DNA of 32,272 nt from a virus (Duplodnaviria > Heunggongvirae > Uroviricota > Caudoviricetes), in the IMG/VR virus record IMGVR_UViG_2737471827_000002, positions 1 to 32,272 of that record, one strand, 5' to 3'. Below, piece after piece: positions 30,941 through 32,018 of this stretch. Below the pieces are notes generated by a model that saw only the letters and a list, made by a program, of their open reading frames with translations, did not search any database and was not told the origin of the DNA. Position numbers and translations under genes: made by a program. How positions within the stretch are numbered: position 1 is the stretch's first letter; each line of letters starts with the position of its first letter.

Positions 30941-30979
30941 ACAATAAAAAACTGTATTTGATCAACAGTTTTTTATTGT
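30941..30979. promoter_or_regulatory. OR-type operator: 15-bp inverted repeat ACAATAAAAAACTGT / ACAGTTTTTTATTGT with 9-bp spacer, in the divergent promoter region
   Basis: Perfect arms at 30941-30955 and 30965-30979; additional partial sites at 30919-30930 and 30984-31008; shares half-site with the palindrome at 31972-32018. Confidence 0.65.
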
Positions 30980-31015
30980 GATGCTTTTAACAGTATTTAC
31001 CTGTAAAATTGAATA

Positions 31016-31417
31016 ATGATGAGCGCCCTAGAAGTATCTATGTACAGAATCAGCAAGCTTCTTCAGGAAACTGGATGGAGCCAGGCTGAGCTTGCCCGTA
31101 GAATTGGTGTGACACAACAAACTGTTCAACAATGGGTCAGCGGTAAGGCTACACCTAAAGCCTCAAGTTTGGATAAACTGGTTGAGGTTACAGGGCATCC
31201 ATTGCATTGGTTTTTATTGCCTCCTGAAGAGGGGGAGCAAATTTTCACCCCTGACACGATGAAAATTGGTCCTCGCCAACGCGAACTGCTCCAGGCTTTT
31301 AGTGCGTTCCCTGAGGAAGACCAAGAAAAAATGCTTCAAGAAATCAAAGACAAGAAAAAATCAATGGAAGAAACCATTGCCCGGTGGCTGGCGGCACAAA
31401 AAAGCCGCCGGGCGTGA
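31016..31417 (+). CDS. CI-like prophage repressor, HTH (XRE) type, without a LexA-like cleavage domain (possibly PaaR2-like)
   Basis: 133 aa; HTH SQAELARRIGVTQQTVQQWVSG; divergent from cro-like gene; -10-like TAAAAT about 10 nt before ATG suggests a short or leaderless transcript. Confidence 0.7.
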   Translation: MMSALEVSMYRISKLLQETGWSQAELARRIGVTQQTVQQWVSGKATPKASSLDKLVEVTGHPLHWFLLPPEEGEQIFTPDTMKIGPRQRELLQAFSAFPEEDQEKMLQEIKDKKKSMEETIARWLAAQKSRRA

Positions 31418-31444
31418 CCACAGTACAAGAAGAGGAGTTATGCC

Positions 31445-31636
31445 ATGGGTACAGCCCTTTCTCCGATAGTTTCAGAATTCGAAACTATCGAACAAGAAAA
31501 CAGTTACAACGAATGGTTGCGCGCTAAAGTAGCGTCGAGCCTTGCAGACCCTCGTCCCGCAATTCCACATGACGAGGTAATGGCTGAAATGGAAAATCTT
31601 ATTGCTCAAATCGTTGTAACTAACAGGAGCGAGTAA
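31445..31636 (+). CDS. paaA2: Antitoxin of ParE-type TA pair (PaaA2-like)
   Basis: 63 aa; directly upstream of and abutting a ParE-family toxin gene; resembles PaaA2 of E. coli O157:H7 from memory. Confidence 0.6.
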   Translation: MGTALSPIVSEFETIEQENSYNEWLRAKVASSLADPRPAIPHDEVMAEMENLIAQIVVTNRSE

Positions 31637-31923
31637 TGTTACCCATTTTATGGCTACCATCTGCTCGCGATGATTTGCGTCAGATCATAACTTACATCGC
31701 CAAGGAGAACCCACCGGCAGCGCGCAGACTAAAAATACGCATTGAAACATCGGTATTACCTCTATCTGAGCATCCGTACCTATATCCACTAAGCGAACGG
31801 GTTTCAGGGGTGAGAGAGATAGTGACCCACCCTAACTACATAATCCTGTACAGAGTAGCTGCTTCAAGCATTGAGATTGTAAGCGTGATACATGCTCGCC
31901 GACAATTTCCCTCCTCTATCTGA
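31636..31923 (+). CDS. parE2: ParE/RelE-family toxin (ParE2-like)
   Basis: 95 aa; MLPILWLPSARDDLRQIITYIAKENPPAARRL...GVREIVTHPNYIILYRV...IEIVSVIHARR is a typical ParE/RelE pattern. Confidence 0.75.
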   Translation: MLPILWLPSARDDLRQIITYIAKENPPAARRLKIRIETSVLPLSEHPYLYPLSERVSGVREIVTHPNYIILYRVAASSIEIVSVIHARRQFPSSI

Positions 31924-31941
31924 GCTGAACAATTTTCATAC

Positions 31942-31965
31942 TCCCTCTTTCGAGGGATTTTTTTT
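31942..31965 (+). terminator. Intrinsic terminator after the toxin gene
   Basis: TCCCTC-TTTC-GAGGGA followed by TTTTTTTT. Confidence 0.75.
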
Positions 31966-31971
31966 GCTCAG

Positions 31972-32018
31972 ATCTACAATTAAAAACTGTTGACATAAAA
32001 CAGTTTTTAATTGTAGAT
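31972..32018. promoter_or_regulatory. OL-type operator overlapping candidate pL: 20-bp perfect inverted repeat with 7-bp spacer containing TTGACA
   Basis: ATCTACAATTAAAAACTGTT gacataa AACAGTTTTTAATTGTAGAT; TTGACA at 31990-31995 and TAGATT at 32014-32019, 18 nt apart. Confidence 0.65.

Follow-up and report, generated by a model that had tools for sequence, protein, structure and literature searches.

What do two long, perfect palindromes in the immunity region of a lambdoid phage stand for? The window analysed here, a 32,272-nt stretch of viral DNA (Caudoviricetes; IMG/VR record IMGVR_UViG_2737471827_000002, positions 1 to 32,272), carries one of them between a repressor gene and a divergent Cro-like gene, a control region referred to below as OR (right operator region), and the other downstream of a toxin–antitoxin (TA) pair that follows the repressor gene, in the region referred to as OL (left operator region). 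A sequence-only reading had taken the two palindromes to be clearly related and under the control of one repressor, with a single full site evident per location, in contrast to lambda and its three-operator layout. It was right about operators shared by OR and OL, and wrong about the operator unit and the number of sites. The palindromes are very probably, judging from sequence, the binding sites of the repressor and Cro proteins of an ordinary lambda-type prophage switch. We give a probability of roughly 0.8 to a switch of the Sp4/CP-933M (PaaR–PaaA–ParE) immunity type, with five 15-bp operators that would be read by both the repressor and the Cro-like protein and that are interlocked with the promoters.

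Both palindromes are real and not due to chance. The OR arms (30941–30955 and 30965–30979) are 15 nt each, 100% complementary and separated by a 9-nt spacer; the OL arms (31972–31991 and 31999–32018) are 20 nt each, also 100% complementary, with a 7-nt spacer and a TTGACA hexamer at 31990–31995. For perfect inverted repeats with a spacer of at most 12 nt, no arm in 40 dinucleotide shuffles of the window was longer than 12 nt. The kinship of the two palindromes was borne out as well: all OR and OL arms have in common the 15-mer ACAAT(A/T)AAAAACTGT, which occurs exactly four times in the window, always in these arms, and, when up to three mismatches were allowed, yielded seven matches against 1.6 expected, a number reached in 0 of 100 shuffles. 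The paired 15-mers lie 24 bp apart, start to start, at OR and at OL. A further perfect inverted repeat, with 13-nt arms and a 6-nt spacer, is present at 18241–18272.

Comparison with relatives delimits the conserved unit. Scanning viral contigs with the repressor yielded 49 loci encoding relatives, and scanning genome contigs a single locus, from Arsenophonus, on the same contig as the locus called L051 below. Close relatives were those with a repressor at least 98% identical; their OR regions were compared as 19 unique sequences. At OL, close relatives conserve both 15-mers, separated by a linker of 9 or 10 nt, and do not conserve the bases that extend the OL arms to 20 nt (a left-hand ATCT that mirrors a right-hand AGAT). 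The left flank (31966–31975, which includes ATCT) is hypervariable; the right one owes its conservation to being the -10 hexamer TAGATT. Since the arm extension is not conserved, the conserved unit is the 15-mer at both OR and OL.

This 15-mer, previously regarded as a half-site, is a pseudo-dyad in its own right (ACAAT-AAAAA-ACTGT). The operators have the form ACA(A/G)N-N5-N(C/T)TGT, and the self-complementary pattern ACA(A/G)-N7-(C/T)TGT occurs eight times in the window, five of them within the two control regions. We trained a position weight matrix (PWM) on 15 sites from diverged relatives only and then ran it on the window: exactly five sites, starting at 30941, 30965, 30990, 31976 and 32000, scored between 18.4 and 20.4, the next best sequence scoring 8.2. 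They are given here with reference to the rightward promoter PR (cro-like operon), the promoter for repressor maintenance PRM and the leftward promoter PL.

30941–30955: OR1, ACAATAAAAAACTGT, a 15-bp pseudo-dyad in the predicted PR spacer; PWM score 20.4
30965–30979: OR2, ACAGTTTTTTATTGT, just upstream of the PR -35 and abutting the expected position of the PRM -35; PWM score 20.0
30990–31004: OR3, ACAGTATTTACCTGT, whose final T opens the PRM -10; PWM score 18.4
31976–31990: OL2, ACAATTAAAAACTGT, situated upstream of the -35 of PL, with its final T opening TTGACA; PWM score 19.1
32000–32014: OL1, ACAGTTTTTAATTGT, in the PL spacer, its last T being the first base of the -10; PWM score 19.0

OR3, which lies outside any long palindrome, is an additional site that had been overlooked. 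The claim of one full site per location, and of a departure from the three-operator arrangement, is therefore not supported: each arm is itself a dyad (ACAAT-N5-ACTGT), the matrix gives three sites at OR and two at OL, and a lambda-type tripartite layout is present at OR, with three adjacent operators between the divergent PR and PRM. The operator centres are 24 and 25 bp apart at OR and 24 bp apart at OL. The matrix found no third OL operator between 31930 and 32070, where the next best score was 0.5 versus 19 for OL1 and OL2. A candidate fourth operator downstream of PR (about 30915–30929) was rejected, as it matches at 9 of 15 bases and is not conserved in relatives.

The conservation pattern within OR follows the operators closely. 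OR1 and OR2 are invariant in the 19 unique sequences and a single central position varies in OR3; by contrast, the linker 30956–30960, five bases next to OR1, and the flank 30931–30940 are hypervariable. More diverged relatives, with repressor identities of 92% (L042), 82% (L043), 69% (L044) and 49% (L051, from an Arsenophonus prophage), have all retained VTQQTVQQW as their recognition helix. The three OR sites stand at identical offsets (-75, -51 and -26 from the repressor ATG) in L042, L043 and L044, and the OR of L051 shows two pattern matches (-82 and -33), between which a degenerate middle site can be made out by eye. In all of these relatives two OL sites flank a TTGAC(A/G) -35 that follows the operon. 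Throughout, the sites keep their ACA...TGT ends unchanged, with centres that differ and a relative orientation that sometimes differs, the OL sites of L042 and L043 being direct copies and not inverted ones. Moreover, OR1 of L043 (ACAGTAAATTACTGT) and OR3 of L051 (ACAAGATGATCTTGT) are perfect 15-bp palindromes on their own. As the dyad ends are kept while centres and orientation shift, the conserved unit is the 15-bp dyad and not the 39–47-bp palindrome. L051 is devoid of TA genes and L044 has other cargo, and both keep OL and PL directly after the cargo; since the operators persist in relatives without the TA pair, the sites are part of the repressor/Cro module rather than of the TA pair.

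The link between operators and regulator comes from a relative whose specificity has changed. The L047 repressor is 67% identical to that of the window, the differences being mostly N-terminal, its helix reads VAQQSVQKW, and a different motif, TAACTTTAAAAGTG, is found at both its OR and its OL. This co-variation of OR and OL with the helix is the best available evidence that one set of regulators would read both regions. The earlier proposal that a single repressor serves OR and OL is thus supported by the presence of the same motif at both, by the L047 co-variation and by experiments on CP-933P (PMC8630535). In L047–L050 (IMG/VR; locus 2915–2990 and 3956–3992), the operators are of the form TAACTTTA(T/A)AAGTG and lie 23 bp apart, and the PaaR-type C-terminal domain and the TA cargo are retained.

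The genes around these operators are as follows.

31016–31417, plus strand: repressor, 133 aa, with an HTH_3 N-terminal domain, recognition helix TQQTVQQW and a PaaR-type C-terminal domain
30635–30907, minus strand: Cro-like gene of the YdaS family, 90 aa (PF15943, E 8e-10), recognition helix AQQTVWQW
30226–30651, minus strand: CII-like gene of the YdaT family, 141 aa (PF06254)
31445–31636, plus strand: PaaA-like antitoxin (Pfam PaaA2, E 3e-22; PDB PaaA2 3zbe, E 1e-23)
31636–31923, plus strand: ParE toxin (Pfam ParE_toxin, E 5e-17; PDB ParE2 5cw7, E 2e-35)

The locus is a lambdoid immunity region with a TA pair in the rexAB position. A helix-turn-helix (HTH) regulator, a paaA-type antitoxin and a parE toxin follow each other on the same strand, as in the PaaR–PaaA–ParE three-gene modules; paaA and parE form the cargo, and the terminator and OL/PL come next. 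On the other side, beyond the divergent ydaS and ydaT genes, lie an O-like gene (DnaT domain) with iterons and then a lambda-P-like gene (Pfam). The YdaT-family gene would, by analogy with YdaT of CP-933P, be CII-like in function. Residues 37–133 of the repressor align with residues 28–123 of PaaR2, the CP-933P regulator (42% identity over a 98-aa stretch, E 2e-20), most strongly in the C-terminal ~50 residues; the 36 residues before this stretch, where most of the recognition helix lies, have no alignment with PaaR2. A Pfam domain search of the repressor returned no Peptidase_S24 match; the Sp4 repressor has likewise been stated to be without a peptidase domain, in a report that mentions no operators (PMC2669165).

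The operators interlock with the promoters; the promoter elements and the terminator of the operon are as follows.

30936–30965, minus strand: predicted PR of the cro-like operon, deduced from sequence, with -35 TTGATC (30965 to 30960), an 18-nt spacer and -10 TAGCCT (30941 to 30936)
31004–31018, plus strand: predicted PRM, with -10 TAAAAT (31004–31009), followed after 6 nt by the ATG at 31016
31990–32019, plus strand: PL, with TTGACA, an 18-nt spacer and TAGATT (32014–32019), 10/12 matches in a consensus scan
31942–31965, plus strand: intrinsic terminator of the repressor–TA operon, its stem being kept in relatives

PR and PL share one construction: the -35, which lies in the inter-operator linker, begins with the final T of the upstream operator, and the downstream operator fills the 18-bp spacer, its last T starting the -10. 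The PR elements TTGAT(C/T) and TA(G/A)NNT are conserved in relatives whereas the neighbouring linker bases vary, and both hexamers of PL are conserved as well. OR2 ends one base short of the expected position of the PRM -35, and the operator centres fall at about -19, -43/-44 and -68 relative to the predicted start sites of both PR and PRM. Read from the sequence, the PRM and the start of the repressor gene show neither a Shine-Dalgarno sequence nor a good -35, and we predict the repressor mRNA to be leaderless; the -10-N6/7-ATG spacing is conserved in L043, L044, L047 and L051. An extended -10 was rejected for PRM, the TG being one base out of register. The predicted -35 of PR contains a Dam site (GATC, 30960–30963), which is replaced by AATC in some close relatives and is probably not functional.

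This layout suggests how the switch may work. A dimer of the 133-aa repressor would occupy each operator, in competition with the YdaS-type Cro-like protein, both proteins using 434-like recognition helices. Because the operators interlock with the -35 and -10 hexamers, occupancy of OR1/OR2 and OL1/OL2 would exclude RNA polymerase from PR and PL. OR3 would mediate negative autoregulation, as well as repression of PRM by Cro, because its last base is also the first of the PRM -10, and OR2 would be positioned for activation of PRM, as is lambda CI at OR2, because it abuts the position of the missing PRM -35. The C-terminal domain homologous to that of PaaR2 could build higher oligomers, allowing cooperative pairwise binding and possibly a loop between OL and OR, which are ~1 kb apart. 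The sequences show the sites, how well they are conserved, how they co-vary with the recognition helix, and the homologies of the proteins; binding, order of occupancy, activation, looping and exact transcription starts are what we infer for the switch of the window.

The palindromes themselves invite other interpretations. Each might be one operator, made of 15-nt half-sites with a gap of 9 or 7 nt and bound by a single symmetric repressor oligomer, so that OR and OL would have one site each. Such an arrangement would suit the OR arms, which are perfect mirror copies, invariant in the window and in close relatives, and OR1 and OR2 are still 13–14/15 inverted copies of each other in L043 and L044; furthermore, PaaR2, whose homology to the repressor lies in the C-terminal domain, is octameric, so a tetramer could occupy both arms as one unit. 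We nevertheless hold it to be unlikely. A 434-like HTH dimer spans about 14–15 bp and not 39 bp, each arm is a dyad that is perfect in some relatives, and OR3 stands alone at a conserved offset outside the long palindrome. In addition, the OL sites of L042 and L043 are direct and not inverted, and the distance from arm to arm is 23, 24 or 25 bp among relatives.

Nor do the palindromes look like nucleic-acid hairpins, be it an RNA terminator, a processing site or a DNA cruciform, although a perfect 20-bp stem can form at 31972–32018, right after the operon terminator, and sub-threshold Rfam matches to a generic hairpin (microRNA precursor) occur there. The hairpin potential is not conserved (the OL sites of L042 and L043 are direct copies), the stem extension is lineage-specific, no U-run follows the stem and conserved -35 and -10 hexamers are interwoven with the sites. 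Moreover, no Rfam family was found at threshold over either palindrome (whole window at gathering thresholds; 31900–32272 at E of at most 1), and compensatory stem changes were not seen across relatives. We regard a hairpin as very improbable. The presence of one palindrome before and one after the TA-containing operon could also bring to mind autoregulatory operators bound by a PaaA–ParE complex, as in canonical type II systems. However, according to the literature PaaA2 lacks a DNA-binding domain, and it is PaaR2 that regulates the sister system; the antitoxin of the window matches only the PaaA2 'stability determinant' family, and L051 and L044, which do not have the TA pair, keep the same operators. 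This last interpretation is scarcely credible.

Several points weigh against a five-operator switch shared by the repressor and the Cro-like protein. The co-variation involves a single specificity switch, that of L047. The predicted PR falls below the threshold of a consensus promoter scan, its -10 TAGCCT is weak, and there is an alternative PR -10, TATAGT (30930 to 30925). In the window's own lineage the paired operators are perfect mirror copies, and a single larger symmetric unit is conceivable for that lineage alone. Binding of the window's repressor and Cro-like protein to the operators is a prediction, and the exact binding sequences could not be assigned in the CP-933P work (PMC8630535). 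Finally, no similarity is detectable between the repressor and the N-terminal domain of PaaR2, or between the Cro-like protein and the YdaS of CP-933P; the analogy with CP-933P is therefore confined to the architecture and the C-terminal domain.

The five operators are apparently undescribed so far. A literature search for four operator strings gave one irrelevant primer match, and no description of Sp4-type operators was found in the searchable literature (Hallez et al. 2010 being outside that search). With the five operators, the arrangement of the promoters and a likely recognition code in which a 434-like Gln-Gln...Gln helix reads ACA, the PaaR1-type switch becomes directly testable and its heteroimmunity to CP-933P is explained. 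For the design of orthogonal circuits, the same knowledge offers a repressor/operator pair that is compact and non-SOS. A more speculative extension, which we advance as doubtful, is that the PaaR family forms a natural heteroimmune series in which a 434-like helix mounted on a non-LexA oligomerisation domain shifted the operators to 15 bp, and in which the mirrored pairs flanking the -35 of PR and PL would be read as a unit by a PaaR2-like octamer bridging OR and OL (~1 kb), with OR2 at about -43/-44 of both divergent promoters. Three specificities have been seen: ACA...TGT, TAACTTTAAAAGTG and the GTTTAGT type of CP-933P.

Other elements of the window were noted alongside the switch. At 30641–30658, TTGATTTTCATGAATCAT (TTGATT-N6-AATCAT) differs by one mismatch from the YdaT operator of CP-933P (TTGATT-N6-AATCAA). 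The box lies exactly at the junction of the ydaS stop and the ydaT start, where CP-933P has PRE (the promoter for repressor establishment) and the OM site, and is by analogy a candidate CII-like (YdaT) site and PRE. The core of PRM (30997–31014, CCTGTAAAATTGAAT, comprising half of OR3, the -10 and the start region) recurs as a 17/18 copy at 29905–29922, inside the O-like gene (29114–30160, minus strand, encoding the DnaT-domain protein), between two iteron clusters and on the strand antisense to O. This copy is found only in relatives with the same O gene (L003 and L025), and could be an internal antisense or origin-activating promoter, or a recombination scar. The two clusters (29687–29736 and 29979–30028) each consist of three GTCGTGACAT-type repeats spaced 10 bp, which are presumably iterons of the replication origin.

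The leader of PL, at about 32024–32140 (CCAACCCACCCCGCCCCACAGAACGCAGGGCAATACTTCGAGTTACC...), has been kept in heteroimmune relatives, among them CP-933P/Sp12, L047 and the Arsenophonus phage. Its counterparts lie at 3744–3850 in L055 and at 3520–3620 in L051; it is identical in CP-933P, and the adjacent operators are not so conserved. The leader has no Rfam match; it may represent an RNA element, nut-like or of another kind, lying upstream of ydfA. Further away, the Q antiterminator gene (20992–21387) is directly followed downstream (20147–20951, minus strand) by Rfam matches to isrK (20874–20951) and to C4 antisense RNA (20764–20848) and, after the latter, by an ORF6N/KilA-N-type protein (20147–20710, minus strand). 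This block may be an antirepressor module, which could explain the induction of a repressor without an autocleavage domain. Rfam matches at 17916–18104 and 24628–24803 correspond to the STnc100 small RNA and to the sok antitoxin RNA of a hok/sok locus.

Among known systems, the closest is prophage Sp4 of E. coli O157:H7 Sakai, which is the counterpart of CP-933M of EDL933 and whose immunity module (ECs_1067–ECs_1071) is essentially the same element as that of the window. A homologue of the paaR2–paaA2–parE2 system has been located on CP-933M in the literature. The Sp4 repressor, ECs_1069, presumably the PaaR1 of Hallez et al. 2010, is 98.5% identical to that of the window; identity amounts to 96.7% for the Cro-like protein, 94.8% for the toxin, 90.6% for the antitoxin and 90.1% for the YdaT-like protein. 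OR1–OR3 are identical in the two elements. Sp4 differs in linker bases and at OL, whose palindrome is imperfect because the second OL site is ACAGTTTTTTATTGT and the spacing 25 bp; the replication genes beside the module differ too. This immunity type is common: the 1.67-kb region is matched over at least 80% of its length in 509 of 5426 complete E. coli genomes, O157:H7 Sakai with its Sp4 among them.

Base reading looks 434-like. The repressor has a Cro/C1-type HTH domain with a Gln-Gln-x-x-x-Gln recognition helix, and the closest solved structure to its DNA-binding domain is the N-terminal domain of the 434 repressor (phmmer, E 2e-5; 2r63/1per), the alignment of TQQTVQQ with the 434 sequence TQQSIEQ conserving Gln28, Gln29 and Gln33. 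In the 434 complexes (the structures of Anderson, Aggarwal and Harrison), these three residues reportedly contact the ACAA bases. The 434 operators, read from OL657226.1, are 14 bp long (ACAA-N6-TTGT), and 434 OR3, ACAGTTTTTCTTGT, can be converted into OR2 of the window, ACAGTTTTTTATTGT, by one extra central base and one substitution. The two systems have in common operator ends of the form ACA(A/G)...(C/T)TGT, A/T-rich centres, three OR operators, a repressor and a Cro that share the start of the recognition helix (QQTVQQW and QQTVWQW in the window), and a PL with OL1 in its spacer and its -35 in the OL1–OL2 linker.

In operator length, peptidase domain and C-terminal domain, the switch is nonetheless not a member of the 434 family. 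All sites of the window and its relatives are 15 bp long, none having the 14-bp ACAA-N6-TTGT form, and the centre spacing is 24/25 bp instead of the 22/23 bp of 434. Unlike the 434 protein, the window repressor has a PaaR-type C-terminal domain; it lacks a LexA-like S24 peptidase domain and is therefore not expected to undergo RecA-mediated cleavage. Furthermore, OL has two sites and not three, no operator lies downstream of the PR -10, and a leaderless repressor mRNA is predicted, in contrast to the ribosome-binding site annotated in the 434 record.

The resemblance to lambda lies in the layout. Lambda has a leaderless cI mRNA, operators OR1–3 and OL1–3, and a weak PRM with an operator at the -35 position. 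The window likewise displays divergent PR and PRM with three operators at about 24-bp spacing, OL/PL beyond a cargo operon, a predicted leaderless repressor mRNA and a weak PRM with an operator abutting the -35 position. By contrast, the proteins have no relationship beyond the HTH fold, the operators measure 15 and not 17 bp, OL has two of them and the repressor has no autocleavage domain.

The experimental counterpart of the switch is CP-933P (Sakai Sp12), in which PaaR2, YdaS and YdaT are the analogues of CI, Cro and CII, respectively (Jurenas et al. 2021, mBio, PMC8630535; for YdaT, PMC9986795). In that prophage, PaaR2 and YdaS bind the intergenic region, as established by electrophoretic mobility shift assays and DNase footprints at OR, and each represses PR, PRM and PL, the latter lying downstream of the TA genes; PRM is activated at low PaaR2, expression is bistable, PaaR2 octamerises, and the paaR2 mRNA is leaderless, as demonstrated by 5' RACE and N-terminal sequencing (PMC8630535). 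The window resembles CP-933P in gene order, gene sizes, TA cargo in the rexAB position with homologous antitoxin and toxin, the C-terminal region of the repressor, the family of the YdaT protein, the position of PL with its operators after the operon, and the -10-N6-ATG spacing (GATAAT-N6-ATG in CP-933P, read from the Sakai Sp12 sequence). It differs in having two OL operators where CP-933P is reported to have three, and the GTTTAGT-type repeats that serve as operators in CP-933P are unrelated to ACA(A/G)N-N5-N(C/T)TGT. With unrelated operators and dissimilar DNA-binding parts, the window and CP-933P are therefore heteroimmune: the window adds a heteroimmune example to a kind of switch that is known and has been characterised by experiment, with nothing conceptually unexpected for lambdoid switch biology.

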